In this document: piece after piece, positions 16,778-64,000 of the stretch
How the letters are laid out: the number at the start of each line of letters is the position of its first letter
Position numbering within the stretch: position 1 is the stretch's first letter
Virus record (IMG/VR): IMGVR_UViG_3300034358_000032
Location: 5,581-69,580 of that record
Source of the DNA: a virus
Strand: one strand, 5' to 3'
DNA length: 64,000 nucleotides
Translations under genes and position numbers: made by a program
The notes under the pieces: generated by a model
What the model was told of the DNA's origin: nothing
Seen by the model: only the letters and a program-made list of their open reading frames with translations
Database searches by the model: none

Positions 16778-17260
16778 ATGCTGCTCGTCCTACGATCGTT
16801 ATTCGCCTGGGCGAGCCGCAACGCTGTTCTCAACGAGGCTGCGGCCGATGCTACCCTCACGGCAACCGCTCAGGCCGCCGTCAGTGCGACGGAAGCCAGC
16901 GCCGCCGCCAACGCCACCTTTGCGTCAACCGCTCAGACCGCCGTCTCGGCAGCCCTCACCAAGACAGCGGCCAACGCCGTTCCGGCGGCAACCGCGATGG
17001 TGGCCGTCAGTGCGGCGGAAACCGGCGTCGCGGCCGACGCCACCCTGGTTGCCGCTGCCCATGCGGTGCCGCAGGCCAGCCTCACCGCGACGGCTGCCAG
17101 TGCAACGCTTTCGGCAGCCGGGACCGTGGCTATCGCGGCTCGAACAGCCGCAGTGGCCGCAAGTGCGGTGCTCGCCTCAACGGCATTCGCGACAGCCAAC
17201 ATAGACCCGAACGTCCGAGTGCATATCACCATCCGACTGCCTCCGACGCTGTCACCGTAA
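16778..17260 (+). CDS. Ala/Thr-rich repetitive structural protein
   Basis: ~26 aa periodic AAADATLxATA repeats. Confidence 0.6.
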   Translation: MLLVLRSLFAWASRNAVLNEAAADATLTATAQAAVSATEASAAANATFASTAQTAVSAALTKTAANAVPAATAMVAVSAAETGVAADATLVAAAHAVPQASLTATAASATLSAAGTVAIAARTAAVAASAVLASTAFATANIDPNVRVHITIRLPPTLSP

Positions 17261-30613: not shown

Positions 30614-31840
30614 ATGCCAACCCCGATCCTGAACATTCCCGAGATTTCGCCGACGCAGACCGACAAAACCACGACGATGAACGACATGGTTCTGGCGGTC
30701 GAGAACGCGACCCAAAACCAGATGGCCGTATCCTTCGCCGGCGGCAATGTCAGCCTGAGCAACGCGCAGTTCGTCGGCTACACCGGCTTCATCTGCGGCG
30801 GAGCCACGGCCGCGCGCGACCTGATCGTGCCGCTCACCAAGCGCAACTTCTTCGTCGACAACACGGCCGGCGGCTATCCGATCACCACCAAGGGCGCGAG
30901 CGGGGCAACCGTCGTTGTTCCCGCCGGGCAGTTTATGCAGATCCTATGCAATGGGACCGACTGCAAGACCACGACCATAGCCTCTGCGTCCGGCACGGTC
31001 ACCCAGGTCACCGCCGGGGCCGGGCTGTCGGGCGGCCCGGTCACCACGACCGGCACCCTGGCGGCCGACTGGCATGCCGGGACGGTGTCTGCCCTTGGGG
31101 CAAACCTCACCCTCACCAGCGGCACCCTGGCCGCTACGGGCGGCGGAGGCAGCAGCATATGGAACGCCGGCACGGTCACCGCGCTTGGAACCGATGTCTC
31201 AGCGAGCGGCGGAACGCTCACCGTGGCGCAGCACTGGAACGGAGGCACGGTGTCTGCCCTCGGGGCAAACCTCACGCTGACATCCGGAACACTGGCCGCG
31301 ACCGGCGGCGGCGGCAGTAGCGACTGGAACGCCGGAACAGTCACCGCACTCGGGGCGAACCTGAGCCTCACCAGCGGCACGCTCAGCGCCTCGGGCGGAG
31401 GTGGTAGTAGTGACTGGAACGCCGGGACGGTGACCGCCGTCTCCGATCTCCTGACAGTCAGCGGCGGCACGCTGGACGTGGTAACCGCGATGCGCAGTGT
31501 CCCGCTGCCGTTCAGCTTCTCCGGCAAGCCCGCCGGCGGCCAGATGGTGCATGTCGCGCTTCTGAATGACGTCCCGCTTAACATCCCGGCCAGCCTCGCG
31601 GGGACCGCTACCTACGTCGGTTCCGCCCCCTACGCGACCGCCGACTTCGTGCTGGCCAAGGTGAACAGCGGCACGGTGACGACCATAGGCACGATCTCGA
31701 TTGCTGCGTCCGGTTCGATCACCCTGACCGGCTCAGCCTATACCGGCGGCAGCGGCGACACCCTGCGCCTGACCGCACCCAGCCCGCCCGACACGACGCT
31801 GTCCGACGTCTGCATCACCATCGAGGCCAAGCGCCCATGA
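30614..31840 (+). CDS. Tail fibre/spike protein with Gly/Thr repeats
   Basis: TPILNIPEI...QTDKTTTMN N-terminus like DUF2793 fibre anchors; five W(N/H)AGTV.ALG...SGTL repeats. Confidence 0.75.
   Translation: MPTPILNIPEISPTQTDKTTTMNDMVLAVENATQNQMAVSFAGGNVSLSNAQFVGYTGFICGGATAARDLIVPLTKRNFFVDNTAGGYPITTKGASGATVVVPAGQFMQILCNGTDCKTTTIASASGTVTQVTAGAGLSGGPVTTTGTLAADWHAGTVSALGANLTLTSGTLAATGGGGSSIWNAGTVTALGTDVSASGGTLTVAQHWNGGTVSALGANLTLTSGTLAATGGGGSSDWNAGTVTALGANLSLTSGTLSASGGGGSSDWNAGTVTAVSDLLTVSGGTLDVVTAMRSVPLPFSFSGKPAGGQMVHVALLNDVPLNIPASLAGTATYVGSAPYATADFVLAKVNSGTVTTIGTISIAASGSITLTGSAYTGGSGDTLRLTAPSPPDTTLSDVCITIEAKRP
31070..31475 (+). repeat. Five coding repeats WxAGTVxALGxxLxLxSGTL
   Basis: Visible in the translation and as repeated TGGAACGCCGG / GGGGCAAACCTCAC DNA. 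Confidence 0.85.
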
Positions 31841-51894: not shown

Positions 51895-52119
51895 ATGAGC
51901 TACCGCGTTTCAACCCATCGCGCCGGTCACTCGCTCTGGTGGTGGCGCGATAACACACCCATTCCAGCCGATCACGACAGTATCCGCCCGGCGACGCAGG
52001 CGGAGGCGGCGCTGATGGACAAGATAGTCGAACAGGACGCCCGCCTCGGGGCGCCGCCGCTCGACATCTCGATCAGCCTGCTGGCGCTGATGGGCAACGC
52101 CAAACGACGAATCAACTAA
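51895..52119 (+). CDS. Hypothetical protein
   Basis: Abuts the previous stop; last rightward gene of the block. Confidence 0.55.
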   Translation: MSYRVSTHRAGHSLWWWRDNTPIPADHDSIRPATQAEAALMDKIVEQDARLGAPPLDISISLLALMGNAKRRIN

Positions 52120-52346
52120 AGCGAGTCGATTTCTTCGGCGGCAAGGTCAAACCGGGCGAGCCTCATCGGAAACCCGGTTTGCTCCTTTACCAACTCAGCG
52201 TATGGGCGCAGGGAGCGCATCCGGTCGAGATCGGCGCCGACCAGGGGCATCCACACCGGCTTTCCATCGACCATCAGCGCAGCTCCGGCGACGCCCTCGC
52301 CGTCGGGTTCGGTCACGACCCAGGCGTAGAGGCTGGTGATGATCAT
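52116..52346 (-). CDS. Hypothetical protein
   Basis: WMPLVGADLDRMRSLR; coupled. Confidence 0.7.
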   Translation of the reverse strand: MIITSLYAWVVTEPDGEGVAGAALMVDGKPVWMPLVGADLDRMRSLRPYAELVKEQTGFPMRLARFDLAAEEIDSL

Positions 52347-52585
52347 GGCTCGTATTCCACAAAGAAAATCTCACCGGTCGTGGTGTTGGCAGCGTATTTC
52401 CGGCCTTCCGGCAGGCCGTGCTCGATAGCCGCCTCTCGGACCCGGTGATGCGGCAGCGTCTTGTCGATGATCGTTATCCCGGTCTCGAGGTTGACGGTGA
52501 ACGTTGGGTTCTTAGCGGCATCCTTGATGCGCGTGGCCTGCTCGGGCGTCAGGCGCTTGCCCGTGTCGGTTAACTTGGGTGTCAC
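52343..52585 (-). CDS. Hypothetical protein
   Basis: 4-nt overlaps on both sides. Confidence 0.65.
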   Translation of the reverse strand: MTPKLTDTGKRLTPEQATRIKDAAKNPTFTVNLETGITIIDKTLPHHRVREAAIEHGLPEGRKYAANTTTGEIFFVEYEP

Positions 52586-53214
52586 TGCGACATCTCCACC
52601 CGAACGGCCTTCTGCATGATGGCGCGTTCCTGATCCGTGCGGGCAACCACCTGGCCGTCACGCACCTCGTGCCATTTCCCATCTTCGGACATAGCCGGCG
52701 GGAACACCGTCATGGCCCGGCGGCTGCTCCAGCGGACGATCGTGGCGTAGCCGTGCTTCTCGCCCATCATCGCCATGAACTCGCGCAGCTTCGGATCTTT
52801 GTGCGCGTCGGGAAATGCCGGATCGACCCATACCTGGATGACGTCGATCTTTTGCGTGCCGCGCTCGCCCGTTATCGTGACGTAGTCAACCTCCATGTCG
52901 ATCACGTAGTGGACGCGATCCGGTCGCTGCAAGCCGGCGGCTTCGGGATCAGATAACCAGCGGCATGCCCAGGTCTTGCAGGCGTTTGGCCGCCGCGGAT
53001 AGATCGTGCATCCACGCCCGGCGCTCGAATGCTTGCACTTCTGCCCGGCGGCCTTGTTCAGCGGGAACACCGGCACCGGTAAGAGCTTGCAGCACAAGGT
53101 GCACGTTCCGCAGACACGGCCCGTTCCCTTATCGTCGAACGTCACTGTAAATCCGCCGTCGGCATCCGTGGTAATCTTCATGCGGTCGCCCGCCAGTTCG
53201 AATGACGGGGTCAT
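52582..53214 (-). CDS. CxxCxxCC (YkgJ-like) cysteine-cluster protein
   Basis: CGTCTLCCK...CKH...GCTIY..RP.AC...C. Confidence 0.8.
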   Translation of the reverse strand: MTPSFELAGDRMKITTDADGGFTVTFDDKGTGRVCGTCTLCCKLLPVPVFPLNKAAGQKCKHSSAGRGCTIYPRRPNACKTWACRWLSDPEAAGLQRPDRVHYVIDMEVDYVTITGERGTQKIDVIQVWVDPAFPDAHKDPKLREFMAMMGEKHGYATIVRWSSRRAMTVFPPAMSEDGKWHEVRDGQVVARTDQERAIMQKAVRVEMSQ

Positions 53215-53429
53215 TTGAAGCTCGCGATCCAGTCGCGCACGGAGGCCGGGCCCTTCAGCGCGGCGATTGTTCCAGCGCGGATCACGGCGAGGGGCGTGAA
53301 CTGGCCCCTGAGTTCGTCGTGCTTGTTGATGTCTGAAACCAGAGAGGCGGCAGCAGCCGCCGCCTCTCCGGCGTTGAGATGCTCTGCCGCCCTGGCTTTC
53401 GCCCAGGCAAGGTGTTCGTCGCGGGTCAT
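53211..53429 (-). CDS. Hypothetical protein
   Basis: MTRDEHLAWAKARA; coupled. Confidence 0.7.
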   Translation of the reverse strand: MTRDEHLAWAKARAAEHLNAGEAAAAAASLVSDINKHDELRGQFTPLAVIRAGTIAALKGPASVRDWIASFK

Positions 53430-53779
53430 AATTTGAACCTCGTCAGGATTGCTTTAGCTGAGTCGATCTTGCTCTGCGGAACTTCCATGCACGCCGCCCA
53501 GGCCGACGCGACCTCGCTTAGCAGCCGATAGTCCGATCCGCTCATCTCAAGTTTCCAGCGTTGCGCGCAGGCCAGGCAGCGGTCGTGCAGGCCCTTGTTG
53601 ACCTGCACCCATTTGTCGTCATCGCTCATCGGGGGTTCTCGTTTCCGATCTTCGCAGTGGTCGGCCCACAGCTTGCCAAATGCACCGACGTTCCAGTGGT
53701 ATTGGCACTTGCCCTGACCGGCGATCAGTCCGGGGACGCCGGGCTGACCGCAGATCGTGCATGGGTTGTTCGTCGTCAC
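53426..53779 (-). CDS. Hypothetical protein with N-terminal Cys/His motif
   Basis: CTICG...CQYH; coupled. Confidence 0.6.
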   Translation of the reverse strand: MTTNNPCTICGQPGVPGLIAGQGKCQYHWNVGAFGKLWADHCEDRKREPPMSDDDKWVQVNKGLHDRCLACAQRWKLEMSGSDYRLLSEVASAWAACMEVPQSKIDSAKAILTRFKL

Positions 53780-54261
53780 GGTTGCTTCTTCGCCGGATCG
53801 AACTGCCCAAAGACTTCGCCCGTCCTGGCGAGAACCGCCTTCTCGACCGTGCCATCCGGGTTGAACGAGTAGATTGTCGACGCCGGCTCCGAGGCGTTCG
53901 CCTTGGCCCAGGAACTCACCTGTTCCGGCGATCGGAACTCCACCATGTCAGCGACCTGCTCAACGGTCAGAGCCACGTCAGCGTTGCCCATGTAGTCGCC
54001 GTCGGTGTCGTTGATCTCAAGGCCGACGATCACGCCGTTGCCCGCAAGCGGCTGATCCGGCCGGACGGTGATGCGGAAGAACTTATCGGGGGCCTTCAAC
54101 AGCCCCTCCTCGTCCACGAACAGCACATCGCCGCTTGGCCAGCCGTAGGCGGCCTGGATGTAGCCGCCGACCAGGGTCCGCAGCGCAGTCCAGTCCGAGG
54201 TTTTCAGTTCGACGAGGCTGATCTCCCGCTTCGTCGCGTCGATGAAGATTACTTTGCTCAT
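53776..54261 (-). CDS. DUF3846-like protein
   Basis: LVGGYIQ...LFVDEEGLLK...LAGN. Confidence 0.75.
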   Translation of the reverse strand: MSKVIFIDATKREISLVELKTSDWTALRTLVGGYIQAAYGWPSGDVLFVDEEGLLKAPDKFFRITVRPDQPLAGNGVIVGLEINDTDGDYMGNADVALTVEQVADMVEFRSPEQVSSWAKANASEPASTIYSFNPDGTVEKAVLARTGEVFGQFDPAKKQP

Positions 54262-54563
54262 TGGATGATCCTTGGCTTGGCGTAGCGCGGCGTGAACAGG
54301 CCATCGAGGCGGCCCTTGTCGCGGTCCATGTGTGCGCTGATGCCATAGATATCGTGGACGAAATTGACCTCGTCAGCATCGCGCAGGTCCAGCAGCCGTA
54401 GCGGCGTGGTGGCGTGGCAGGCCGCCAGGTCAAGCGCGAGCGTAAAGGCGTGCAGCGGATGGCCCAGCCGGTCGGCCGTCTCCATCGCGCGGCGATGGAT
54501 GTCGCGGATGATCTCGGCCTCCTGCTTGGTGACGGCGAAGTTGAACTGGCACGGATCGATCAT
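54258..54563 (-). CDS. DUF6874-like small phage protein
   Basis: LDLAACH...PLRL..L.DADEVNFVHDIYGI..H.DR..G.L...F.PR. Confidence 0.7.
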   Translation of the reverse strand: MIDPCQFNFAVTKQEAEIIRDIHRRAMETADRLGHPLHAFTLALDLAACHATTPLRLLDLRDADEVNFVHDIYGISAHMDRDKGRLDGLFTPRYAKPRIIQ

Positions 54564-54814
54564 GACGGCCGAACCAATTCTTCAAGCATGGACATGCACT
54601 CCGAAACCTTGAGCCGGGCGAGTGTTTTCTCCGCGTCAGTGGCGGCCAGCATCCTGCCGACCGCTTCGTATTGCTCCATTGCTTCATGGATGATCATGCG
54701 GCGCAGATCGATGTTCATTGTGATAGCCCTTGTTCCATCGCCGGGTATGTGTGGCTGCTTCGAAGCCCAGGCTCTGGCGACCGCAAGAACCGTTTCTTTC
54801 GGAAAGCGTCTCAT
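54560..54814 (-). CDS. Hypothetical protein
   Basis: GGAGAG RBS before ATG 54814. Confidence 0.6.
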   Translation of the reverse strand: MRRFPKETVLAVARAWASKQPHIPGDGTRAITMNIDLRRMIIHEAMEQYEAVGRMLAATDAEKTLARLKVSECMSMLEELVRPS

Positions 54815-54874
54815 GCCTTCTCTCCATGCGCAGTGACCGGCCGGGGCGCGCAACCCCGACCGGTCGTTGTGGTC
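54815..54874 (-). promoter_or_regulatory. Hairpin plus conserved RBS block
   Basis: 12-bp stem 54835-54865; CTGCGCATGGAGAGA identical to 55751-55765. Confidence 0.55.
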
Positions 54875-55744
54875 TCACATCAGCGGCGGTTGAGCCAGCA
54901 GAAGGTGCTCCGGCATCGGCACCGGATCACGCGGCCCCGCCCGTAGCGCCTCCCATAGCCACGGGTTGGCATCCAGCCGCAGCCGCGCCGCGTCGGTCGC
55001 CTCGGCCTCCAAGTGGTGCAGGCGCATCATCGGCACCCGCTTGCCCTTGCGGTCGTGGACGGTCTGCTCGGCCCGAACTCTGAGCACATACCGCAGCGCA
55101 TCCACCGGGCTCGCGTGATCCGGCATGATGCCGTCCGGCACATCGATCCGCGGCTCGGCACCGATCCACATCAGCCGCGGATCAATGGCTTCCAGAAAGG
55201 CCTCGTCGGCAAATACCCCGCGCCAAACGCCGAGAACCGGGATGAAGCCGAACCACAGCAGGAAAGCGCCGGGGCGCGACCAGGACGGCACCGTCCCCAA
55301 CTCGGCCCTCAACTCCGCGATCAGATACTCCCTCGGGTTGCGGTATTTGCGCTCAACCTCCTCCTCGACCTCGTTCGGATCAGGTTCGGGCGCTTCGGGA
55401 TCGACAACCGGCGTCGGGTTGAGCAGCCGTTCCACGATGTCGATCAGCGGCTCCAACCGCTGCTTGCGCAGCTTCCACAGCGGCGAATCGTAGTAGGGCC
55501 TGCCCATTGAGACGCGATCCCGCCGGGGCTTGTTCAGTAGCTCATCGATCTCGTCGCAGACCTGACTTATGGCGATCACACAAGAGGCCAGATCGACCGG
55601 CAAAGCAGGCTTTTCGGGCTCCGCGGGAACGCTGACCACATCAGCAGGTTTGCCCGATTTGGCCCTCGGTTTGCCGGGCGGTTTGCCCTTGCTGAGCGGC
55701 TTGCCCTTCCAGACCGGGGCGGTCTTGATTGCACGTTTAGCCAT
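54875..55744 (-). CDS. Hypothetical protein
   Basis: GGAG RBS before ATG 55744; Lys/Pro-rich N-terminus. Confidence 0.7.
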   Translation of the reverse strand: MAKRAIKTAPVWKGKPLSKGKPPGKPRAKSGKPADVVSVPAEPEKPALPVDLASCVIAISQVCDEIDELLNKPRRDRVSMGRPYYDSPLWKLRKQRLEPLIDIVERLLNPTPVVDPEAPEPDPNEVEEEVERKYRNPREYLIAELRAELGTVPSWSRPGAFLLWFGFIPVLGVWRGVFADEAFLEAIDPRLMWIGAEPRIDVPDGIMPDHASPVDALRYVLRVRAEQTVHDRKGKRVPMMRLHHLEAEATDAARLRLDANPWLWEALRAGPRDPVPMPEHLLLAQPPLM

Positions 55745-55843
55745 GACGCATCTCTCCATGCGCAGATGCCGGGAACCGCCCGGCGCGGGTGCCGGAGGCA
55801 CACAGAGGGAGGCAGCGAACCGCCTCGCTCCGCGCGCTCCCGG
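55745..55843 (-). ncRNA. Structured leader element, copy D (divergent)
   Basis: Same P1 / alternative P2 / P3 / GGAG architecture as copies A-C; G-U pairs fit the minus-strand RNA. Confidence 0.55.
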
Positions 55844-56728
55844 TCAGAGCAGGCCTGTCGGGTTCATCGCCGCCTTGATGTGCTCGAAGGCCTCCGGCAG
55901 TTCCCGGAAAATGCTCTTGTCGATGGTCGCCCCGCCCTTCTCGTCCGGCAGCAGTTCCCATCCATTTTCCACCAACCAGGCGAACTTGCCCTTTACGCCA
56001 TAGTGGTGCGGGGCTTGGTCGAGGTTGGGGTGACTGCCGATCGTGCCGTGCTGCTTGAGCCAGACCGCGGACCCCACCATGGCGGCGGCCTCGAGCGCGC
56101 CGACCAGCGCATGCCGCGACATCCGCCGGGCGCGCGGGCCGCTCTCCCCGCCGATGATCACCCAATTCATGTCGGTGAAGTTCAGCTTGTCCGAAGTGCC
56201 GATCAGCGGCTCGGCACTGACAAAGAACGTCCCTGCCCCGACCCGCTGCTTGACCGTGCGCCAGATGTCCAACCGCTTGGCAACCTCGTCTCCCTCGACG
56301 GTCACCCCGACCCAGATATGCCGCGGAATGCCTAAGCCGCCGTAGCGTTGCACCAGCAGCTTGCGCGCCCGCACCGGCCGCTTCGTCAGGATCTGGAACA
56401 CGATGGTCGGGTGCTCCTCCATCACGTCCAGGCACCGGAAAATCACGTCATCGGGGATAGCGTCATGCCAAAAGTCGGACAGGGAATTGACGAAGACCAT
56501 GTGCGGCCGCAACCCCCTCTCCGTTCTCATCGGCTTGAATTTCCTAATATCCGCGAGCCGTTCGAGCCGCAGGCGCACCTCGTCAAACTTCTGGCGAAAT
56601 GTCGCGGGCCGCAGGTTGACCAGCGTTTCCGCGTAGCAATTATCGCAGCCAGCCGAGACCTTGGTGCAGCCGATGGCGAGCCCCCATGTCGAATCACACC
56701 AACTGATATTCGAACCTATGTTCGTCAC
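55844..56728 (-). CDS. DUF5131 (phage Gp37/Gp68) radical-SAM-like protein
   Basis: ISWCDSTW...GCTKVSAGCDNCYAE (Cx6Cx2C), FVNSLSD, FQILTKRP, SAEPL, WVIIGGESG and KQ; AAGGAG RBS favours GTG 56728. Confidence 0.92.
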   Translation of the reverse strand: MTNIGSNISWCDSTWGLAIGCTKVSAGCDNCYAETLVNLRPATFRQKFDEVRLRLERLADIRKFKPMRTERGLRPHMVFVNSLSDFWHDAIPDDVIFRCLDVMEEHPTIVFQILTKRPVRARKLLVQRYGGLGIPRHIWVGVTVEGDEVAKRLDIWRTVKQRVGAGTFFVSAEPLIGTSDKLNFTDMNWVIIGGESGPRARRMSRHALVGALEAAAMVGSAVWLKQHGTIGSHPNLDQAPHHYGVKGKFAWLVENGWELLPDEKGGATIDKSIFRELPEAFEHIKAAMNPTGLL

Positions 56729-56877
56729 GTCGACTCCTTCTTTGAACTCCGCCCCGCTATAGTCCACAGCGTCCCATGAGGGATCGCCGCGCGCAGCGGT
56801 GCGTAATGCCTGTTCCTCGGCAGACACCGGGCATTGCGAGGTGCGGCGCCGGTCTCTCCACCGGCGCCGCTATCGCC

Positions 56878-57183
56878 TTACTCGATTATGCTGCCGCCCA
56901 GATCTTTCAGATCGTCGGGAAGGTCGTGCCCATTCCGGAACAGCCATGCAGCCGCTTCGCTTGGGGTCAGCCAGCGGGCCGCATCAGGTTTGTTGGCCCA
57001 CTGAGACGTTGAGACAACGTAGTAACGGCCCTTGGAACTGACGTGCAGCTTTTCGTGGTCAAGGTTCGATCCGGTAGCCTTGCTGACGTTGTTGGAACCG
57101 TCGAACCAAGTGTCCTCATCCCAACTATCGGTAGCGAGAAAGGTGTCGACCACCTTCCCGTCATCCATTGCGTAACGTGCCAT
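56878..57183 (-). CDS. Hypothetical protein
   Basis: GAGGGG RBS; HEKLHVSSKGRY...EAAAWL. Confidence 0.7.
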   Translation of the reverse strand: MARYAMDDGKVVDTFLATDSWDEDTWFDGSNNVSKATGSNLDHEKLHVSSKGRYYVVSTSQWANKPDAARWLTPSEAAAWLFRNGHDLPDDLKDLGGSIIE

Positions 57184-57196
57184 AATCATCCCCTCG

Positions 57197-58264
57197 TTAG
57201 TGAACAGTGCTCGGGCTATCCGTCCCGGCCGGCATCGGCAACTCCTCGGCCTCCGGAGCCTCGATCTGCGGAGCCGCCGGAGCCTCGATCTTGACCGTCG
57301 GGGTCCGCCCGATCAGGTCATCGACCCTGGCTTTGAACCCTGCAGCTTTGGCGAGCGCGATTGCCTTCTCGCCCTCGTCCGTGCTGGCCTCCGCCCGGTC
57401 CAGCCAGCGGGTTTCATGAGCCCGCAGCGCCGCAACCGTCAGCTTGACGGCCGGGGCGAGCACCGGCTGCGTCTCCTTGTCGATCGGGAGATACCCGGCC
57501 GGAATGGGTTGCAACAGCAGCAGCGCACCCGGCCATTGCGGGAAGTCGAACACCTTCAGCGAGTGCTCGGAGCCAGTGAAGGCCCGGATCACCATGCCCT
57601 CTTTCGGCCGGCGATCCTTGGGCAAGCCCGCCTCGAGCAGCTTGGCGATGTCCCCGCAGTATTTCAGCGACTTGCTGCTAAACCCCACGGCTTGCCAGTC
57701 GCGGCCGGAGGCCTCGCCGTCCATGTCCATGTTCGTAAAGGACGCCGCGGTCAGCAGGTGCTCGTATGGGGGAAACCGTCCCACATGCACGGTAGCCGCC
57801 TTCATGGTCGCCGACTTGCTGGTGTCCGACAGCTCGGCGCCCATGGTGCCCTTGGCATGGGTGACATTGACGATCAGCGCCCCCTCGACCTTGGCCAGCA
57901 TGCCAACCCGGGCCTTCAGGTCGTCCCGGTGCAGCATCAGCCCCGAGGCCAGCCAGCTAGGCGTGGTGCCGGAGATCGGGAATGAGCCGATGAACACCCT
58001 TCCCGCGTCCCGGGCAATGATCCGCGCCTTGCCCTGGTCCACCTGGTGCAGCACCACGCCGTGCAGCCGGTCTTCTTCCTTCGGGGCCTTGGCCGCCACG
58101 CTTTCGGCCGCCAGCAGCAGCGCCGCCGGCACGGCCAGGGTTTCCATGATTGTCGCTTTGGGGGTCTTGGCCTTGGCCGGGACCTTGCTGCGCTTGGCCG
58201 AGGTATCTTGCAGCAAAGCCTTTGCGGCGGGCTTCCGCCCTGCCGCTTGCGTTCGTTTAGCCAT
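57197..58264 (-). CDS. Divergent sliding-clamp (DnaN)-like protein
   Basis: LHGV, IIARDAGRV, GRFPPYEHLL, GFSSKSL and LLLQPI echo clamp motifs LNGV, ATDGHRL, G.FPDY, GFN..YL and MPM. Confidence 0.5.
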   Translation of the reverse strand: MAKRTQAAGRKPAAKALLQDTSAKRSKVPAKAKTPKATIMETLAVPAALLLAAESVAAKAPKEEDRLHGVVLHQVDQGKARIIARDAGRVFIGSFPISGTTPSWLASGLMLHRDDLKARVGMLAKVEGALIVNVTHAKGTMGAELSDTSKSATMKAATVHVGRFPPYEHLLTAASFTNMDMDGEASGRDWQAVGFSSKSLKYCGDIAKLLEAGLPKDRRPKEGMVIRAFTGSEHSLKVFDFPQWPGALLLLQPIPAGYLPIDKETQPVLAPAVKLTVAALRAHETRWLDRAEASTDEGEKAIALAKAAGFKARVDDLIGRTPTVKIEAPAAPQIEAPEAEELPMPAGTDSPSTVH

Positions 58265-58361
58265 CTCACTCTCCGGATTACGGCGGGCTAGTTCCCGGCC
58301 GTTCTGCGCTTTCCTGGCGCATACCAAGCGGGGCGACCGAAGCCGCCCCGCGCCGTATGCG
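58265..58361 (-). ncRNA. Structured leader element, copy A
   Basis: CGCAUAC/GUAUGCG stem with C-UUCG-G apical hairpin, then CGCAGA, P3 and GGAG; homologous to 60887-60987. Confidence 0.75.
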
Positions 58362-58802
58362 TCAGATTGCCAGTGGTTTGAGGATGATGTTCTCCTCGTC
58401 CGTCAGCCGAGCCTCGATAGCCTTGAACTCGTCCACCGTTGCGTGGCTGGCGAACTGTTCCATCAGCAGCGCATAGGTGGCCCGGGTCAGCATGGTCAGC
58501 CCGTCGTCCTGACCGAACTTCTTGACCGTGATGTCGGTTACCCGTTTCAGGGCGTGCATGCAGCGATCAATGGTGAGCAGTTCCTCCATCGTGTAGTCGA
58601 GTTCAGTGTCGTCGGGATCGACGGTGACCTCGAAGTCGTCCAGGCATCCGATAGCCACGGTTGCGTGGAACTCATCCAGTGCGGCTTCCGAACTCCGGGC
58701 TTCGATCTGATATTCGCCGGACGGATTGGTGATCCGATCGTCCGGCTTGCTCAGTTCGTGGTCAGCAACAAGCTGCTTCACGGTTATGGTGTAGGCCGTC
58801 AT
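58362..58802 (-). CDS. Hypothetical acidic protein
   Basis: EAALDEFHATVAIGCLDDF; RBS present. Confidence 0.7.
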   Translation of the reverse strand: MTAYTITVKQLVADHELSKPDDRITNPSGEYQIEARSSEAALDEFHATVAIGCLDDFEVTVDPDDTELDYTMEELLTIDRCMHALKRVTDITVKKFGQDDGLTMLTRATYALLMEQFASHATVDEFKAIEARLTDEENIILKPLAI

Positions 58803-58803
58803 G

Positions 58804-58959
58804 TCATTCCCCCTTGTGCTCGCGGCCGAGCGCCTTCAGGGCCAGCCGGTAGGCTTCGTCCACGTTGGACCAATCGACCGATCCGCCGTCTCCGCTCGCT
58901 TTGTCGTAGGCCTCGACCAACTTTTCACAGGCACTTCGCGCGCGCCCAAGTTCAGCCAT
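58804..58959 (-). CDS. 51 aa hypothetical protein; absent from the ORF track
   Basis: MAELGRARSACEKLVEAYDKASGDGGSVDWSNVDEAYRLALKAL...; fills the gap; may start at TTG 58971. Confidence 0.65.
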   Translation of the reverse strand: MAELGRARSACEKLVEAYDKASGDGGSVDWSNVDEAYRLALKALGREHKGE

Positions 58960-58967
58960 TTCCACGG

Positions 58968-59384
58968 TCAATACTCCGACGGCAACATGATGACCCAGGC
59001 CTTCAGGCCGCCGTCCTTGGCGACGAAGAACCTGATCTCCTCCAGCGGGAAATCGGTGTATTCGATCTCCTGCTTGGCGATCGGCGGGGTGTCGTTGCCG
59101 TCCGTCACGCTCAGCAAATGAGGCCGGTTGGGTGCATGATCATCGATCGACCGGATGAACGTCCAGGTCTGGAACTCCTCTTGTTGCAGTCGTTTGTTCG
59201 TCATCAGGTGGCTGGCAATGGCGTCGATCAGCCAGAAGCATTGAGCGTTCTTGCAGAGCCACACCACGCCGTCCGTCATCAGCAGCGCACGACCCATAAC
59301 GGATCCTGCGGTGTATTCGCCGGTGCCGGTGAACTGCGCCAGTCCCGTCAGGAGATCAGCGCGCGATAGTTTCTTGTCGGTCAT
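58968..59384 (-). CDS. DUF6876-like protein
   Basis: FTGT, TDGV, WLIDAIAS, EEFQTW, DGN, YTDFPL and LPSEY. Confidence 0.8.
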   Translation of the reverse strand: MTDKKLSRADLLTGLAQFTGTGEYTAGSVMGRALLMTDGVVWLCKNAQCFWLIDAIASHLMTNKRLQQEEFQTWTFIRSIDDHAPNRPHLLSVTDGNDTPPIAKQEIEYTDFPLEEIRFFVAKDGGLKAWVIMLPSEY

Positions 59385-59758
59385 GCCTTGCCTCCATCGT
59401 CCAGCACCAGGCCCTTGCCGCGATAGTCCAGGCTGATCCACTTCCGCATGATCCGGTAGAACGCCTTGCGTTCTTCCAGCGTCATCCGAATGTGCTGCGG
59501 AAATCTCACGATGTTCTGCTCGAGGTCCTCGACCGAACCAATGAAAGCGCCGGAGTGATAGTTCCCGTGTGCGTCCACGTAGCTACAGATCAGAAAGCCG
59601 TCCGACATTATGCTCGCCGTGCCGACATATCGCTGATTATCCGACCGCGTGTAGCCCGCCGGAAACTCCTTCGCCAACTCCAAGGCTTCCGCCACGATGG
59701 CACCGAACATCGTGTCCCGCGTGGCTTCTACCGTCTTCTCCTGCCATGTTTTCGTCAT
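59381..59758 (-). CDS. Hypothetical protein
   Basis: ATGA-coupled. Confidence 0.7.
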   Translation of the reverse strand: MTKTWQEKTVEATRDTMFGAIVAEALELAKEFPAGYTRSDNQRYVGTASIMSDGFLICSYVDAHGNYHSGAFIGSVEDLEQNIVRFPQHIRMTLEERKAFYRIMRKWISLDYRGKGLVLDDGGKA

Positions 59759-60357
59759 GACATCCCTCTCTCAGCATTGCGGCCGGCGACCGTGATCGCT
59801 CCGGCCTCAGTCAACAGTTTCTTCGTGACCAGCGCGGTCTTAGCCGTCGCCCATTCGGCACGACTGGGAAACCTCTCCCCCGGCTCGAGCTTTACGCGCA
59901 TCGAGAACAGGTCCTCCTTCGCCATCTCGTACCGCGTCTTGCCGTTGTAGGCGGCCTTGAACCAAGCCGAGGCCCGCAGCACGATTTGCTCGTGGGAGGT
60001 CAGCGTGACCGGAGCCGGCAGCATCGGCGCTGCATCCACCGGGTGCATGAAGAACGTCAGCCCCATGTCCCGACCGCGGCTGATCGTGTGGCGAACCACC
60101 ACCAATCCCTGCTGCAGCGTGACTTCGCGCTCCGCCCTGCCGGCATCCCATGGCGGGGAGACCTGATCGGACACCGGCACGCGGTTGCCTGACTTCAGTT
60201 CCACGGCCCAATAGGTTTCCCTGCTGCCGTCGTGCCAGTTGCCCGCGGACGCCGGTATGTCCACCTTGTCGCCGAGAACAGCCTGATACATCCGGCCTCG
60301 ATAGCTGCCGCGCAAATGCTCCGGCACCATCTTGGGTTCGAGAAAGATCGGTTTCAT
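59755..60357 (-). CDS. Hypothetical protein
   Basis: WHDGSRETY...GRDMGLTFFMHP...GAITVAGRNA; coupled. Confidence 0.7.
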   Translation of the reverse strand: MKPIFLEPKMVPEHLRGSYRGRMYQAVLGDKVDIPASAGNWHDGSRETYWAVELKSGNRVPVSDQVSPPWDAGRAEREVTLQQGLVVVRHTISRGRDMGLTFFMHPVDAAPMLPAPVTLTSHEQIVLRASAWFKAAYNGKTRYEMAKEDLFSMRVKLEPGERFPSRAEWATAKTALVTKKLLTEAGAITVAGRNAERGMS

Positions 60358-60698
60358 GTGTGCACGTTCCACGAATGAACCGAACGGCCGCCCGACAGCC
60401 GACCGATGTTGACGGTCAACGAAGGGAAGGAACCATCGCCCGGAGCGCCGGGGCCGTCGTAAACCCAGCCGCCGTTGAAGATGAACCGCTCGCCGTCGAA
60501 GATCGCAAACCGCATGCTGAACGGGGCAAAGTCGCTGCCCAACACCGCCTTGCGGTCGTTGTCCTTGGTCATGCCGACGGTCAGTGTGCGCAACAGCCGG
60601 ATCAGGTCGCGGCCGAGCTGGTCGGTGCAGCCCGCTTGCTCCGCGAAGTCGATCGCCGCCCGCAGGCCAGCCGGATCGGTGATGGTGATCTCGCTCAT
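60354..60698 (-). CDS. Hypothetical protein (DUF4120-like)
   Basis: DFAPFSM.F...NGG..Y.G...WNVHT C-terminal pattern. Confidence 0.65.
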   Translation of the reverse strand: MSEITITDPAGLRAAIDFAEQAGCTDQLGRDLIRLLRTLTVGMTKDNDRKAVLGSDFAPFSMRFAIFDGERFIFNGGWVYDGPGAPGDGSFPSLTVNIGRLSGGRSVHSWNVHT

Positions 60699-60886
60699 CT
60701 GCGCACCATCACGTTGAGGGAGAACTGCACGCTCTCAATGCCGGGAACATCCCGCGCACCACGAGAACTGGCAAGTAACAGGGTTGATCCGGTCTTCGAT
60801 GGTTGGGCGCTTCCGATCTTGCTCGGAGAACAATCGATCTCCAAGACCAGCGTGTGACCGCTGACCTTTACCTTGATATTATTCAA
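60695..60886 (-). CDS. Small conserved-type hypothetical protein
   Basis: LVLEID...PSKTGSTLLLASSRG...LNV; GGAG RBS with TTG start. Confidence 0.7.
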   Translation of the reverse strand: MNNIKVKVSGHTLVLEIDCSPSKIGSAQPSKTGSTLLLASSRGARDVPGIESVQFSLNVMVRR

Positions 60887-60987
60887 CGCTTTTACTCCAA
60901 ATCTACGGCGGGAAAGGTCCCGGCCGCTCTGCGCTTTGCCGGCGCATACCGAGCAGCATGGGGCACCATGCCGCTCCGTATGCGTCG
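60887..60987 (-). ncRNA. Structured leader element, copy B
   Basis: Same CGCAUAC/GUAUGCG stem as copy A, with a different but fully paired apical stem. Confidence 0.75.
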
Positions 60988-61185
60988 TCAGTTCGGCTTT
61001 TGACGTTCAATCTCCGCCATCACGGAAAGCCCTTCGATCAAAGCCTCCGAGTGGTCGCCCATGTCATCACTCCCCCATGCCACGATCAGGTGCATCATCG
61101 ACCGGATCAGTTCCGCATGATCCCAGTTGGCATCAACGGCGATCTGCCTGACCCGGTCTTCCAGTTCGTCCGGCTCAAGCGTCAT
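60988..61185 (-). CDS. Hypothetical protein
   Basis: Overlaps the upstream stop; acidic and helical. Confidence 0.6.
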   Translation of the reverse strand: MTLEPDELEDRVRQIAVDANWDHAELIRSMMHLIVAWGSDDMGDHSEALIEGLSVMAEIERQKPN

Positions 61186-61735
61186 CGGAAGTCTCCTGGC
61201 TCAACGCCGACGACAGCCAGGCCGCCTCCGACTTCCAACCCTCGAGCACCTTCAGCCGTAGCTCCGGGGACAGCGCCCGCCGAAGCCAATCGCTTGCACG
61301 CTCGCGCCCCAGGGCAACCAGCAGCGCATTGGTCATGCCGCCCAAAGCCATGATCTCGATGGTGTCCTTCGGGGTCCTGAACCGCAGCACGCCCACCTTG
61401 GCGATCCACTCGTTCCAAGGCTCCGGGGGATCGAGCGGCGGTTCCGCACCTAAATCGCTCTCAGTCAGCATCGGCAGGGGAAACTCCACGACCTTCTGGC
61501 GCGGGTCCATCACGGTCCCGGACATGGCTAAAACTCGCCGGGCATGCTCATAGGTGACGTGCAAGTCAGGCCACTCATCGATCAGGCCAAGGGCCTCCTC
61601 GCCCGGGTAAACGTCCTGAATGTCCCGGACGAACTCTCGCAACACCTCCAGCGCCCTGGTCAATACAACGGTCATCTGTCCTCCAAAGGAAATGCCAGGG
61701 AGCACGAGGCCCCCGGCGGTAGGCTTAGTCGTCAA
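61175..61735 (-). CDS. Hypothetical protein
   Basis: Coupled; EWPDLHVTYEHA. Confidence 0.6.
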   Translation of the reverse strand: MTTKPTAGGLVLPGISFGGQMTVVLTRALEVLREFVRDIQDVYPGEEALGLIDEWPDLHVTYEHARRVLAMSGTVMDPRQKVVEFPLPMLTESDLGAEPPLDPPEPWNEWIAKVGVLRFRTPKDTIEIMALGGMTNALLVALGRERASDWLRRALSPELRLKVLEGWKSEAAWLSSALSQETSDDA

Positions 61736-62058
61736 TCAACCCGGAACTCAGCGAGCAAAGCGTCAACGCTCTCAAACGTCCTGCTCGTGAAGTTCTCGAA
61801 CACTTCCGCCCAGGTCGGATTGCGACCGGTCTTCGCCTTCAGCCCTTGGGCGATGCCGTCCAACTGGAACAGAATGGCGAAGTAGATCGTGGGCTTGGGA
61901 TCAGCGGCAGCGAACATCACCGCGCAGCCATCGGGGTCCTTCAGCCCGCCGCCGTCCAGCTTGACCAGCGGCAACAACGGATAGCGTGGCCACTCCAAGG
62001 GGTTGGCGATGAACTGCTTTGCCCGGGCAATGGCCGCGGGCTCCTGCTTGCTTGCCAT
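61732..62058 (-). CDS. Hypothetical protein
   Basis: PLEWPRYPLLPLVK...FESVDALLAE.RVD. Confidence 0.7.
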   Translation of the reverse strand: MASKQEPAAIARAKQFIANPLEWPRYPLLPLVKLDGGGLKDPDGCAVMFAAADPKPTIYFAILFQLDGIAQGLKAKTGRNPTWAEVFENFTSRTFESVDALLAEFRVD

Positions 62059-62061
62059 GGC

Positions 62062-62301
62062 TCAGCCCTCGACCTTCAGCCATTTGCCGGCGTGCTCAGA
62101 GCCTTCCGGCTGCTTGACGTATCGCTGGCCAAGTCCGGTCCCCAGCTTGCCGCCGCGCCGCTTGAACTCTTGCGGCAGGATGCAGCCCCATCGGCTGTCG
62201 CCCGGCACGCGGCCGTCGACAAAGCTGTCCACGATGTTGGCGCCGGTCAGATCACAGTGCGCAGGGATCGTGCCGAACCAGAACTTCGGTTTCGTCGTCA
62301 T
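62062..62301 (-). CDS. Hypothetical protein
   Basis: FVDGR...WG...GGKLGTGLGQRY...WLKVEG; GGAG RBS. Confidence 0.75.
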   Translation of the reverse strand: MTTKPKFWFGTIPAHCDLTGANIVDSFVDGRVPGDSRWGCILPQEFKRRGGKLGTGLGQRYVKQPEGSEHAGKWLKVEG

Positions 62302-62397
62302 CGTTTGTGCTCCAAGTTACCAGAGGAAAAGTCCGCCTGGCTCTGCGTCGGAAACGCATAGGATGCCGGACCGGCCAAAGTCCGGCGTCCCATGCCC
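62302..62397 (-). ncRNA. Structured leader element, copy C
   Basis: GCAUG/UAUGC stem, UGCGU/ACGCA alternative hairpin, CGCAGAG, GGA-CUUU-UCC P3 and GGAG. Confidence 0.7.
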
Positions 62398-62435
62398 TTC
62401 GGAATATTTTCGGGAATAATCGGCGCAGCTAAATC

Positions 62436-62897
62436 TCATCGGGCCGAGCGCCGAGCCATTGCCGCCATGATCTTGGCCAGCGCCGTGTCGCCGTCCTCGG
62501 CCGCCGGCGTGATGACCTTGGGCGCAGCCTTCCGCTCCCGGACCCGCACGGTGCCATCGTCCCAACCGCCCCAGGGCGTCTTGTCCACCGACCAACGCGG
62601 CCGGGGCAGAGCCTTGCCGCCCGGCCGGTGCGGAGCGTTGATCCGGTCGTGCACCGCAGCCCGAGCCGCGTCCGACTTGGGTTGGCTCGCCGCCTGCACC
62701 CATTCCGTCGTGGCCCGCTTGGTGGCCGGGCGTGGCTGGTTCAAGCAAGCCGCAGTTTCGGTGACCGCGAACAACGTCCCATCGGAGACCATCGCCATCC
62801 TCACCTGCCGGACCAAGTCAGGCGAGGCCTCGACCCCTGCCCTTTTCATCGCCGCCCGGAGTTCCCGTTCGGTGTATCGCCTCGTGTCCTGTCCCAT
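62436..62897 (-). CDS. Hypothetical basic protein, first gene of the leftward operon
   Basis: GAGGAG upstream; directly downstream of the leftward promoter. Confidence 0.6.
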   Translation of the reverse strand: MGQDTRRYTERELRAAMKRAGVEASPDLVRQVRMAMVSDGTLFAVTETAACLNQPRPATKRATTEWVQAASQPKSDAARAAVHDRINAPHRPGGKALPRPRWSVDKTPWGGWDDGTVRVRERKAAPKVITPAAEDGDTALAKIMAAMARRSAR

Positions 62898-62941
62898 CGC
62901 TCGTCTCGTCTCCTCTGATCCGATCTATCAGGATCACAGGA

Positions 62942-62970
62942 ATATTAGCACATTTTGACGCAAAAGTCAA
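62942..62970 (-). promoter_or_regulatory. Sigma70-type promoter, leftward
   Basis: TTGACT-17 nt-TAATAT with extended TG. Confidence 0.8.
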
Positions 62971-63042
62971 GTAAAAGCGTTGCCCCGCGAAGTAGAGCGG
63001 GCGTAGCGACGACGCCTATAACGTGTCGAGACGGGGGCTGTA

Positions 63043-63071
63043 TTGCAATCCGCAAGTAAATGTGCTAGTAT
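63043..63071 (+). promoter_or_regulatory. Sigma70-type promoter, rightward
   Basis: TTGCAA-17 nt-TAGTAT with extended TG. Confidence 0.75.
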
Positions 63072-63120
63072 TACTCCGGTTTGGTGTAATCTTGCCCTTA
63101 CCGAATTGGAGCGTTGAACA

Positions 63121-63459
63121 ATGATAGATGTCGATGACCTGGCTATGGCTCGGATGAAAGAGATAGCCGCCCACTACGGTTGGAACGAGGCGGACTGCCT
63201 GTATCGCCTGTTCAATGCACTGGCCAATGGTAGCGAGCCCTTCGATATAGCCACGCTACTGTGGGGCGTGGATTTCGTGGCTTGTGAGGGACAGCCGCGG
63301 TTCACGGTGAAGAAGCAGATGTTCGATGCAACGCTGCCAGCCAATCGCCCGGCCGATCCGATCTATGACCACTACAAGGACCGCGTTAAAGCCGCCCGCA
63401 GATCGCCGCTCATCCTTCGCCGTGGTCGGAATGCTCGCCGCTTAAAGCACCAGGCGTAG
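63121..63459 (+). CDS. Hypothetical protein in a stand-alone transcription unit
   Basis: Has its own promoter, GGAG RBS and terminator. Confidence 0.7.
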   Translation: MIDVDDLAMARMKEIAAHYGWNEADCLYRLFNALANGSEPFDIATLLWGVDFVACEGQPRFTVKKQMFDATLPANRPADPIYDHYKDRVKAARRSPLILRRGRNARRLKHQA

Positions 63460-63468
63460 AAAGCCCGG

Positions 63469-63502
63469 AACCCCTGGCGGGGAAATCTCGTCAGGGGTTT
63501 TT
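63469..63502 (+). terminator. Rho-independent terminator
   Basis: CCCCTGGCGGG/CTCGTCAGGGG stem with G-U pairs, followed by TTTTT just after the stop codon. Confidence 0.8.
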
Positions 63503-63522
63503 CACGACCAACTCTCGTCGCA

Positions 63523-63658
63523 CTAAATCTCGTGACTAAATCTCACGAGCTAAATGTCGAACGACTAAATCTCATCGACTAAATCTCAAGGCACTAAATC
63601 TCACGCACTAAATCTCAAGCAGCTAAATGTCGTCGGCTAAATCTCACGACTAAATCTC
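63523..63658. repeat. Array of ten CTAAAT(C/G)TC 9-mers with 4-6 nt spacers
   Basis: Starts at 63523, 63536, 63550, 63565, 63579, 63594, 63608, 63623, 63637 and 63650. Confidence 0.95.
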
Positions 63659-63746
63659 ACGGCGTTCTGTCGTCGGCCTTGATAGCGTCGAGGTCCGCGG
63701 CGGGGTCGCTATCAGCGCCGGTCAACGTGCGTCGGGCGTGCGTTGT

Positions 63747-63846
63747 GCGTGCGATTGCGTGCGGACGCCTGCGATCGTATGCGCTCGGCGTGCGATTGCG
63801 TGCGAACAACATGCTATGGCGTGTGGCGTGCGTGCGATTGCGTGCG
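63747..63846. repeat. Three identical 17-mers GCGTGCGATTGCGTGCG separated by 24 and 25 nt
   Basis: Copies at 63747, 63788 and 63830. Confidence 0.9.
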
Positions 63847-63874
63847 GCAGGGCGCCATTGACGCCGCCAGCCTG

Positions 63875-64000
63875 CCCCGCCCTGGTCCAGCCCCGCCCTG
63901 GTCCAGCCCCGCCCTGGTCCAGCCCCGCCCTGGTCCAGCCCCGCCCTGGTCCAGCCCCGCCCTGGTCCAGCCCCGCCCTGGTCCAGCCCCGCCCTGGTCC
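63875..64000. repeat. Perfect 16-nt tandem repeat CCCCGCCCTGGTCCAG (7 full copies plus a partial; runs off the window)
   Basis: Directly visible. Confidence 0.97.

Follow-up and report, generated by a model that had tools for sequence, protein, structure and literature searches.

The window analysed here is a 64,000-nucleotide stretch of virus DNA, bases 5581-69580 of the 69,580-bp IMG/VR record IMGVR_UViG_3300034358_000032, whose ends are identical over 120 bp and which is rated complete. It comes from a tailed phage, encoding a portal, an HK97-type major head protein, tape-measure and tail proteins, a primase, a helicase-like protein and an exonuclease. We focus on its leftward early operon (52116-62897, minus strand; about 24 genes, mostly small), which is punctuated by four intercistronic elements, A to D. 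Each element spans about 100 nt, starts where the upstream gene stops or a little beyond, extends to the next ribosome-binding site (RBS), and can form three hairpins, P1, P2 and P3, the first two of which compete for the same bases. Here, we show that such elements form a family of structured RNAs in related phages and prophages, in which both competing helices are kept by compensatory changes, and we consider what they may do in the early transcript.

The early operon and its intercistronic elements

Our own gene calls bear out an earlier sequence-only reading of the window, which had noted that the leftward genes between 52.1 and 62.9 kb overlap or abut except at six gaps. On the minus strand these lie at 62302-62435 (element C), 61676-61731, 60887-60987 (B), 58265-58361 (A), 56726-56877 and 55745-55843 (D). 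Most operon proteins had no family match, the matched domains being DUF6876, DUF5131, DUF6874 and DUF3846; one is a sliding-clamp-like protein, with the PF02767 domain found in 2 of 28 of its relatives. A consensus scan of the operon strand across 51.5-64 kb detected a single promoter-like site, at 62970-62942, and no second one, so that the 52.1-62.9 kb block looks like one early operon of about 11 kb; judging from its match to the consensus, this site likely starts the early transcript. The elements and the nearby signals are listed below, with scores from R2, a covariance model built from 43 gene-strand copies.

58262-58365, minus strand: element A, from the upstream gene's stop codon TGA (58364-58362) to the ATG of the clamp-like gene (58264-58262); R2 101.4 bits, E 7.5e-20
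58314-58365, minus strand: full P1 of A, 21 bp, predicted free energy -38.5 kcal/mol
58305-58321, minus strand: P2 of A, UGCGC/GCGCA with loop CAGGAAA; the 3' strand of lower P1 supplies both its 5' arm and this loop
58280-58302, minus strand: P3 of A, ACGGC-C-GGG/CCC-GCCGU, followed by GGAG at 58274-58271
60884-60990, minus strand: element B, with stop codon TGA at 60990-60988, GGAG at 60898-60895 and a TTG start at 60886-60884; R2 91.2 bits
60937-60990, 60930-60946 and 60905-60927, minus strand: full P1, P2 and P3 of B
62299-62401, minus strand: element C, with GGAG at 62313-62310 and ATG at 62301-62299; R2 44.3 bits, E 3e-7
62351-62400, 62344-62358 and 62319-62341, minus strand: full P1 (extension GAAG/UUUC), P2 (UGCGU/ACGCA) and P3 of C
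55742-55846, minus strand: element D, a diverged copy, with stop codon TGA at 55846-55844 and ATG at 55744-55742
55792-55843, 55789-55801 and 55768-55784, minus strand: P1 (22 bp), P2 (GUGCC/GGCAC) and P3 of D
62970-62942, minus strand: sigma-70-like promoter, TTGACT-17-TAATAT with an upstream TG; consensus match only
61694-61717, minus strand: terminator-like hairpin with a U-rich tail inside the operon, not a family member

In element A, the full P1 consists of a CUG/CAG extension, an A·C mismatch, the 7-bp helix CGCAUAC/GUAUGCG, an internal loop and a 10-bp upper stem capped by a UUCG loop. A and B are 77% identical over 85 nt and their flanking genes are unrelated. C is separated by 37 nt from the stop codon of the gene that precedes it; in D, an extra hairpin (55746-55763) holds the GGAG in its loop. 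The minimum free energy (MFE) folds of all four contain a long P1 with an internal mismatch together with P3, the shared design that the sequence-only reading had proposed, and are more stable than shuffled sequences (200 shuffles each, with the number as good in brackets): z = -3.54 for A (1), -4.48 for B (0), -4.19 for C (0) and -3.02 for D (0). P2 is missing from the MFE fold in all four window copies, and imposing it on the predicted folds costs 4.8 kcal/mol in A and 4.8-6.2 kcal/mol across A to C. The pairings quoted earlier (CGCAUAC/GUAUGCG and UGCGC/GCGCA in A and B, UGCGU/ACGCA in C, GUGCC/GGCAC in D) are right, as are the kept linker CGCAGA and the GGAG before each start codon. In A to C, P3 ends about 15-18 nt before the start codon.

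The view that the elements are not simple terminators also holds, because no U-tract follows P1 or P3 in A to D (P1 is followed by GCGCCAGG, and P3 by UAAUCC, UAGAUU or UAACUU) and the terminator scan lists none of the four. No sigma-70 or sigma-54 promoter was recognised inside an element by reading, and the sigma-70 consensus scan likewise detected none there. The P3 loop has no consistent pairing partner in the rest of the element, as judged by eye in A and B.

As for the two remaining gaps, the 56-nt gap at 61676-61731 is no better folded than its shuffles (z -0.18) and holds the terminator-like hairpin, which lies about 0.6 kb downstream of element C; if this hairpin is active, the operon would need read-through. 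The 152-nt gap at 56726-56877 (minus strand), which precedes the DUF5131 gene, folds into three hairpins (z -4.81, equalled by 0 of 200 shuffles), gives no match to the element model and differs in design from A to D.

A family of related copies

A covariance model built from A and B only (R1) recovers C (E 1.9e-6), D (E 0.011) and, from six related loci, about 20 further copies; every match is on the gene strand. Across 40 sources, R1 gives 57 matches at E ≤ 0.01, 55 of them on the gene strand, the remaining two being opposite-strand echoes of the A and B palindromes; in 17 non-redundant loci, 43 of 43 matches are on the gene strand. R2, searched over 31 sources, gives 57 gene-strand matches at E ≤ 2.5e-4, together with eight opposite-strand rows that are weak echoes over P1. 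Such echoes were removed before counts were made, and identical copies from overlapping metagenome contigs were counted once (e.g., L027 and L037 equal L026). Related phages and prophages, about 20 sequences in all, thus carry at least 57 members of the family, always between the genes of one early operon. The sequence-only reading had presented A to D as one family of four. A to C are clear members; D scores E 0.0102 with R2 in one search and lies above E 0.05 in the largest, and on its sequence we regard it as a weak, diverged member.

Five whole phage records of 68-70 kb carry 4, 4, 4, 4 and 3 gene-strand copies, which in each record cluster towards one end, inside a single segment of 2.5-6.7 kb. 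With only 150 first-look candidates scored per genome, four bacterial assemblies of 4.9-8.3 Mb gave 22 matches, all of them inside prophage early regions. There are 3-7 copies per operon, always at gene junctions. This confinement to early regions indicates that the element is specific to the operon of this phage group. A host repeat of the REP type was considered and rejected, since the four assemblies show no chromosomal scatter of copies. One 8.3-Mb chromosome (G005, holding loci L015 and L016) carries the related prophage region twice, at about 1.33-1.35 and 7.25-7.27 Mb, with three elements in each region and identical scores between both, probably through duplication of the prophage.

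Only an alignment of 19 clamp-like proteins led to relatives. Searches of GenBank phages by blastn (8 kb) or tblastn (clamp-like protein) returned no relative, and IMG/VR returned nothing to a single-protein pattern scan or to an exact 19-base core pattern. The clamp-like protein has 28 relatives in a large protein collection, at 40-60% identity. The alignment led to 12 IMG/VR loci, 23 metagenome loci and 5 loci in bacterial assemblies, the last labelled uncultured proteobacterium (3), Acetobacteraceae bacterium (1) and Acidobacteriaceae (1); because all five lie inside long chromosomal contigs, they look like prophages. A looser IMG/VR pattern (TATGCGCCAG, a gap of 0-7, CGCAGAAC) hit 12 stretches, two of them in contigs already known to carry the element; we discarded the other ten as chance, since they are unrelated and have no R2 match, five being copies of one AT-rich sequence. 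The seven sequencing runs found to contain the stretch are all DNA from peat metagenomes, and no RNA run was among them.

Covariation of the competing helices

The consensus element begins with (C)UGAC, the 5' strand of lower P1, a variable upper P1 hairpin and the 3' strand of lower P1, (C/G)UAUGCGCC-AG, and continues with the P2 loop, GCGCA-GA, P3, 4-7 nt, GGAG, 6-9 nt and the start codon. P3 follows the consensus ACG../..CGU, and has a lower stem of 4-5 bp topped by a bulge or mismatch and a partly conserved loop, RAUYNN (e.g., GAUCAU, GAUUAA, AAUCCC). The P2 loops, of 2-9 nt, share no common motif.

The sequence-only reading had named beforehand a lack of covariation in homologues as a result that would speak against it; covariation proved strong for P1, P3, P2 and a competing extension of P1. 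For P1 and P3, counted on the model-fitted alignment of 43 copies, standard pairs fill 89.8% of 1074 cells, compared with 58.3% after shuffling and 36-45.5% in slid controls. All 26 pairs have changed on both sides, with 314 double-change cells vs. 93 expected. P2 was assessed without model fitting: copies were cut at two independent sequence anchors and aligned with MAFFT, which retained 43 of 46 (L031:3707, L032:589 and L031:7594, without both anchors, were left out). In this alignment 87% of P2 cells are paired, against 9-69% in slid controls, and 17 double-change cells were counted vs. 5.9 expected, a value matched by 0 of 500 shuffles. Specifically, pair 8:20 is GC in 36 copies, AU in 6 and GU in 1, with zero mismatches, and pair 9:19 is CG in 27, UA in 4, UG in 3, GC in 1 and other in 8.

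The extension at the base of P1, formed by U1 and G2 with the A and C in the P2 loop, is paired in 81% of cells vs. 67% after shuffling, with 8 double-change cells where 1.4 are expected; its variants in predicted folds include GUG/CAC, CGG/CCG, GAAAC/GUUUC, GAAG/UUUC and GUUG/CAAC. Because P1 and P2 share bases and each is kept by compensatory changes, we conclude that selection acts on both competing helices. One copy, L026:1812, shows the conflict directly: its shared strand reads UGCAC (G to A), a change matched by a U in the 3' arm of P2 but not in the 5' arm of P1, which still has C, so that one P1 pair is lost.

RNA strand and length of P1

Two observations indicate that the structure is selected on the coding strand, i.e., in the transcript. 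First, the 26 paired columns of the model-fitted alignment hold 86 G·U-type and 20 A·C-type cells (cells that are not independent), and a gapless count over P1 in which both types were treated as mismatches gives 27 G·U vs. 13 A·C. Second, among the 27 four-base P1 loops there are 7 UNCG and 7 GNRA tetraloops, where about 1.3 would be expected under equal base use.

The length of P1 is also constrained. For each copy we folded the segment that starts 3 nt upstream and ends with the CCAG of the P2 loop. Full P1 then has a median of 20 bp and falls between 17 and 23 bp in 45 of 48 copies; three are longer (25, 25 and 31 bp) and none is below 17. Its 5' arm is 20-25 nt in 44/48 copies (mode 23) and its apical loop 4-5 nt in 36/48, and this length is held although the upper stems have no sequence in common. 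The conserved lower P1 (3 bp, the A·C mismatch and 7 bp; about 11 nt) meets the variable upper half, of about 10 bp, at mid-helix, where CAUAC-type copies, including A and B, have a 1x1 to 2x2 loop.

In the alternative, three-hairpin form, the three helices follow one another directly, separated by linkers of 0-2 nt. The predicted cost of imposing P2 has a median of 1.5 kcal/mol over 43 copies, with a range of 0-7.2. The element could in principle switch between the two forms.

Conserved positions at gene junctions

We compared the operon proteins of the window with 16 loci by tblastn and found that the copies lie at orthologous junctions, with protein identity of 26-64%. By the gene that follows, the junctions are:

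79-amino-acid gene: 4 loci; element C in the window
63-amino-acid gene: 4 loci; element B
clamp-like gene: 10 loci; element A
289-amino-acid gene: 4 loci; element D

Four relatives thus carry a clear copy at the junction of D, which identifies D as a diverged orthologue. Given the low protein identity at shared junctions, the copies appear old and fixed in place, not recently moved, and the shuffling of gene cassettes, one of the functions offered by the sequence-only reading, is not needed to account for them. The gene content between elements varies among relatives.

We located the stop codon of the preceding gene with a longest-open-reading-frame heuristic: of 46 copies, 23 have it exactly at the first base of the element, 41 have it between -14 and +7 nt of that base, and in 5 it is found 37-90 nt upstream. 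UGAC begins 31 of 46 unique copies, and is kept in several in which it is not the stop in use (e.g., L026:1812, L020:6211 and L032:5190). We therefore consider UGAC to be conserved as RNA, for its CUG/CAG pairing.

Some of the flanking proteins are basic. The genes after A (57197-58264, minus strand) and D (54875-55744, minus strand) start with MAKR... and have Lys/Arg-rich N-terminal tails, and a MAK... start occurs in several orthologues located after other element copies. In three prophage loci (L015, L017 and L019), the reading frame ending at the first element encodes a very basic, Ala/Lys/Arg-rich protein of about 105-137 codons, unrelated to the product of the window's first operon gene.

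A candidate processing mark of the early transcript

We tentatively read the element as a cis-acting intercistronic mark of a long early mRNA, processed in the manner of the RNase III signals of T7. A fresh transcript would fold the full P1, about two helical turns long, followed by about 11 unpaired bases and then P3. Host RNase III, which is specific for double strands, would recognise the full P1 and cut it near its middle. The upstream message would then end in the upper P1 hairpin, which could shield its 3' end, while the freed 3' strand of lower P1 would pair with GCGCA to form P2. As a result, the downstream message would start with adjacent P2 and P3 hairpins just before its GGAG, so that its 5' end might be shielded and the two products helped apart. 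The cleavage, the enzyme, the cut site and the effect on mRNA stability are all what we infer from folds, conservation and analogy.

Several features fit this reading best. There are multiple copies in one transcript, no U-tract follows the hairpins, and the helix is two turns long; furthermore, the conserved and free halves of P1 meet at mid-helix, and P2 reuses exactly the strand that a cut at this point would free. An idealised Escherichia coli RNase III substrate has 22 bp (PMC3867540), although the RNase III of the present phage's host may follow other base-pair rules. The same account describes five RNase III signals in the polycistronic early precursor of T7, about 7000 nt long, where single-strand cuts leave stabilising 3' hairpins (PMC3867540).

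Other observations weigh against RNase III-type processing. The GGGGAUGC-type copies have no mid-helix loop, and their helix runs almost unbroken over 16-18 bp. P2, together with a shortened P1, is already part of the lowest-energy fold in 14 of 43 copies. The notion of a switch between two mutually exclusive helices, put forward in the sequence-only reading, therefore stands as far as shared bases and covariation of both helices go, but the predicted folds do not show strict exclusivity. Since P2 costs so little, many copies may take the three-hairpin form without any cut, and their remaining helix would then fall short of a two-turn ruler. Common descent may also account for part of the constancy in P1 length, since a compensatory substitution does not alter length. 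Finally, the P3 loop (RAUYNN) and the conserved GA linker have no role in the cleavage model, and hint at a further binding partner. With these points included, RNase III-type processing is still the one that our results favour among the functions suggested earlier, with confidence that falls somewhat short of even; intrinsic termination, RBS unmasking, a host repeat, a sigma-70 promoter and a DNA-level role are less likely and fit poorly.

Alternative explanations

The partly conserved P3 loop would find a more natural place if an RNA-binding protein of phage or host attached to the element and controlled how well each sub-operon is translated or how stable it is, with no cleavage involved. 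A related version has the hairpins act as barriers, P1 as a 3' barrier after a cut by RNase E in the linker and P3 as a 5' shield. P3 does have a regular bulge or mismatch besides its partly conserved loop, and in A to C it stands about 15-18 nt before the start codon. The full-P1 fold also leaves an A-rich stretch of about 11 nt unpaired between two stable hairpins, which is the typical layout of an RNase E site. However, P3 does not enclose the RBS, which is predicted to be more than 50% unpaired in half of the copies; no candidate protein emerged from the operon, whose products gave matches to domains of unknown function or none at all; and a pure barrier leaves both the conserved lower-stem sequence and P2 unexplained. 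We regard this explanation as possible but unlikely.

The position of the stop codon could indicate a switch that senses termination. A ribosome at the UGA would melt the lower stem of about 11 nt, and the freed 3' strand would form P2, thereby reporting translation of the upstream gene; the readout could be nuclease protection or help with re-initiation, and such a switch could act together with cleavage. The length of the lower stem is close to the stretch of mRNA covered by a terminating ribosome. The frequent placement of the stop at the first base or within -14 to +7 nt, the prevalence of UGAC and a median difference of only 1.5 kcal/mol between the two folds are in line with this idea. 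In contrast, P2 is kept in the five copies whose stop codon lies 37-90 nt upstream, e.g., in C and L020:2480, which both have UGCGU/ACGCA. Moreover, UGAC is kept for pairing, and the stop codon may be near only because the genes are densely packed. When the first 13 nt are masked, predicted RBS access stays much the same (median unpaired fraction 0.52 vs. 0.50), with shifts above 0.2 upward in 3 and downward in 7 of 44 copies. In the absence of a systematic change in predicted access, we rejected RBS unmasking by a terminating ribosome, and the same predictions count against the earlier suggestion of translational control by RBS masking. Overall, a termination-sensing switch seems to us rather doubtful.

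A combined version would be a new kind of processing switch, gated by translation, in which P1 is cut only if the upstream gene has not been translated to its end, since a terminating ribosome would flip the lower stem to P2. If true, mRNA survival would be coupled to ribosome traffic at each junction of the early operon; we consider this a long shot. Bolder still, the three-hairpin form itself might be active, as a small self-cleaving or polymerase-modifying RNA that is re-armed at each junction.

Processive antitermination, in which the nascent RNA binds the polymerase either alone, as with HK022 put, or with a phage protein, as with lambda nut and N, would address how a long operon with one promoter-like site passes the terminator-like hairpin at 61717-61694, downstream of C. 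In HK022, put RNA suppresses termination and contacts the zinc-binding domain of the polymerase beta-prime subunit. The first copy is placed after the first gene, and nutR and putR likewise lie after the first gene. P2 and P3 follow each other with 0-2 nt between them, reminiscent of put RNA, which consists of two stem-loops; putR is found about 270 nt downstream of its promoter (PMC9378689). Yet put occurs once per early operon and acts over at least 10 kb without having to remain tethered to the polymerase (PMC9378689), whereas the present operons hold 3-7 copies. The P2 loops, of variable length and without a motif, are unlike the boxB loop, and antitermination leaves the two-turn P1 and the competing helices unexplained. 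No conserved N-like protein was found when the operon proteins were compared by tblastn with the 16 loci. The first gene product was considered for this role and rejected: it has an Arg-rich start, but only its C-terminal half has relatives, in 2 of 16 loci, and other first genes are unrelated. We thus hold antitermination to be fairly improbable.

A DNA-level element (a recombination joint for swapping cassettes, a single-stranded DNA hairpin serving as promoter or origin, or a palindromic operator) might be suspected from the varying gene content between elements and from domains of unknown function that we presume to occur in plasmid leading regions as well, but is very improbable, given that pairing is kept by compensation while sequence varies, unlike in a double-stranded DNA site, that the G·U excess on the coding strand (86 vs. 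20) is the reverse of what a template-strand hairpin would give, that UNCG and GNRA tetraloops are enriched (14/27), that the spacing of the P2 arms varies from 2 to 9 nt, and that the copies are old and fixed at orthologous junctions.

From reading the sequence, we also rejected a tRNA-like or RNase P substrate (lower stem plus GCCA), because the CCAG is explained by its pairing with CUG and a helix of at least 20 bp is unlike an acceptor/T-arm stack.

Other repeats in the window

Further repeats lie close to the operon and elsewhere in the window. A 10-base motif, CTAAATCTCA, occurs nine times with at most one mismatch, always on the plus strand, vs. 1.25 expected. Eight of these copies cluster upstream of the early promoter region (63523-63659), and the ninth (62429-62438) sits immediately ahead of element C, overlapping the end of the first operon gene at its stop codon; the array may represent operator, iteron or partition-type sites. 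At the very end of the record (63839-63998) there are at least seven tandem copies of a 16-base unit, CCAGCCCCGCCCTGGT. Since the 120-bp identical ends of the record fall inside this array, the apparent terminal repeat may be an effect of assembly. Between the two arrays, at 63735-63847, three copies of a 30-base unit containing GCGTGCGATTGCGTGCGG are spaced about 41 bases apart. Internal direct repeats of 42-135 bases in structural, tail-region genes (9681-10123, 16829-17044 and 31054-31443) are probably repeated protein domains.

Comparison with known systems

The sequence-only reading had not recognised the element as a known family, and we reach the same result: Rfam 15 gives no match at the gathering score in the 64-kb window. 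At E ≤ 10, six matches fall within 52000-64000, the best with 22.9 bits vs. a gathering score of 50, all to eukaryotic snoRNA, miRNA or lncRNA models or to CcsR1 (16.3 vs. 65.3). A known ribozyme or riboswitch was considered and dismissed, as none matched in Rfam even at this threshold. Full-text searches of the literature returned no description of the motif. A preprint on a prophage RNA array (10.64898/2026.09.22.753630) deals with a different system.

The closest likeness is to the T7 signals R0.3-R1.3. In both cases, several irregular hairpins of about two turns stand between the genes of one long, polycistronic early transcript that the host polymerase makes, with no U-tract. Sequence likeness is absent, no Rfam model of T7 sites matched, and the T7 signals differ in lacking the conserved lower and free upper stem, the P2 that reuses the 3' strand of the lower stem, and the P3 with its semi-conserved loop at a fixed distance from the RBS; cleavage, for its part, is only inferred in the present case.

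Lambda nut (boxA, boxB) also includes a short GC-rich hairpin in an early transcript after the first gene. Its boxB has a fixed loop that is read by the arginine-rich N protein, whereas the P2 loop varies in length and sequence and the search for a conserved N-like protein found none. Repeated intergenic motifs that punctuate small early genes are furthermore exemplified by PeSL in T4-type phages and by SAS/ESAS in Cluster K mycobacteriophages, which, like the element, lie near start codons and are oriented with transcription. PeSL contains a sigma-70 early promoter, unlike the elements, in which the consensus scan detects none; SAS/ESAS are, to our knowledge, conserved sequences without a three-hairpin fold supported by covariation.

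HK022 putL and putR resemble the element as cis-acting early-operon RNAs of a temperate-type phage, built from adjacent stem-loops with minimal linkers and no dedicated known protein (PMC9378689). Put has about 70 nt and two stem-loops, one per operon, and acts over at least 10 kb (PMC9378689); the present element is about 85-100 nt, has three hairpins and competing helices, and occurs in 3-7 copies per operon at gene junctions.

Overall, the element belongs to the intercistronic marks of phage early mRNA, a structured RNA family from uncultivated soil and peat phages without a known family match, and what is unusual about it is that two alternative helices are both kept by compensation. Bacterial and phage RNAs with covariation for both alternative folds are uncommon, and usually prove to be true regulatory switches. 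The covariance model can be used to annotate the early regions of this phage group, and the compact, modular layout of about 100 nt (stop codon, three hairpins, RBS, start codon) makes the element a possible insulator for synthetic operons. Should it indeed be an RNase III-type mark, the cutting strategy of T7 would extend to an unrelated phage lineage that is also found integrated in chromosomes, with a design that adds a built-in refolding step.

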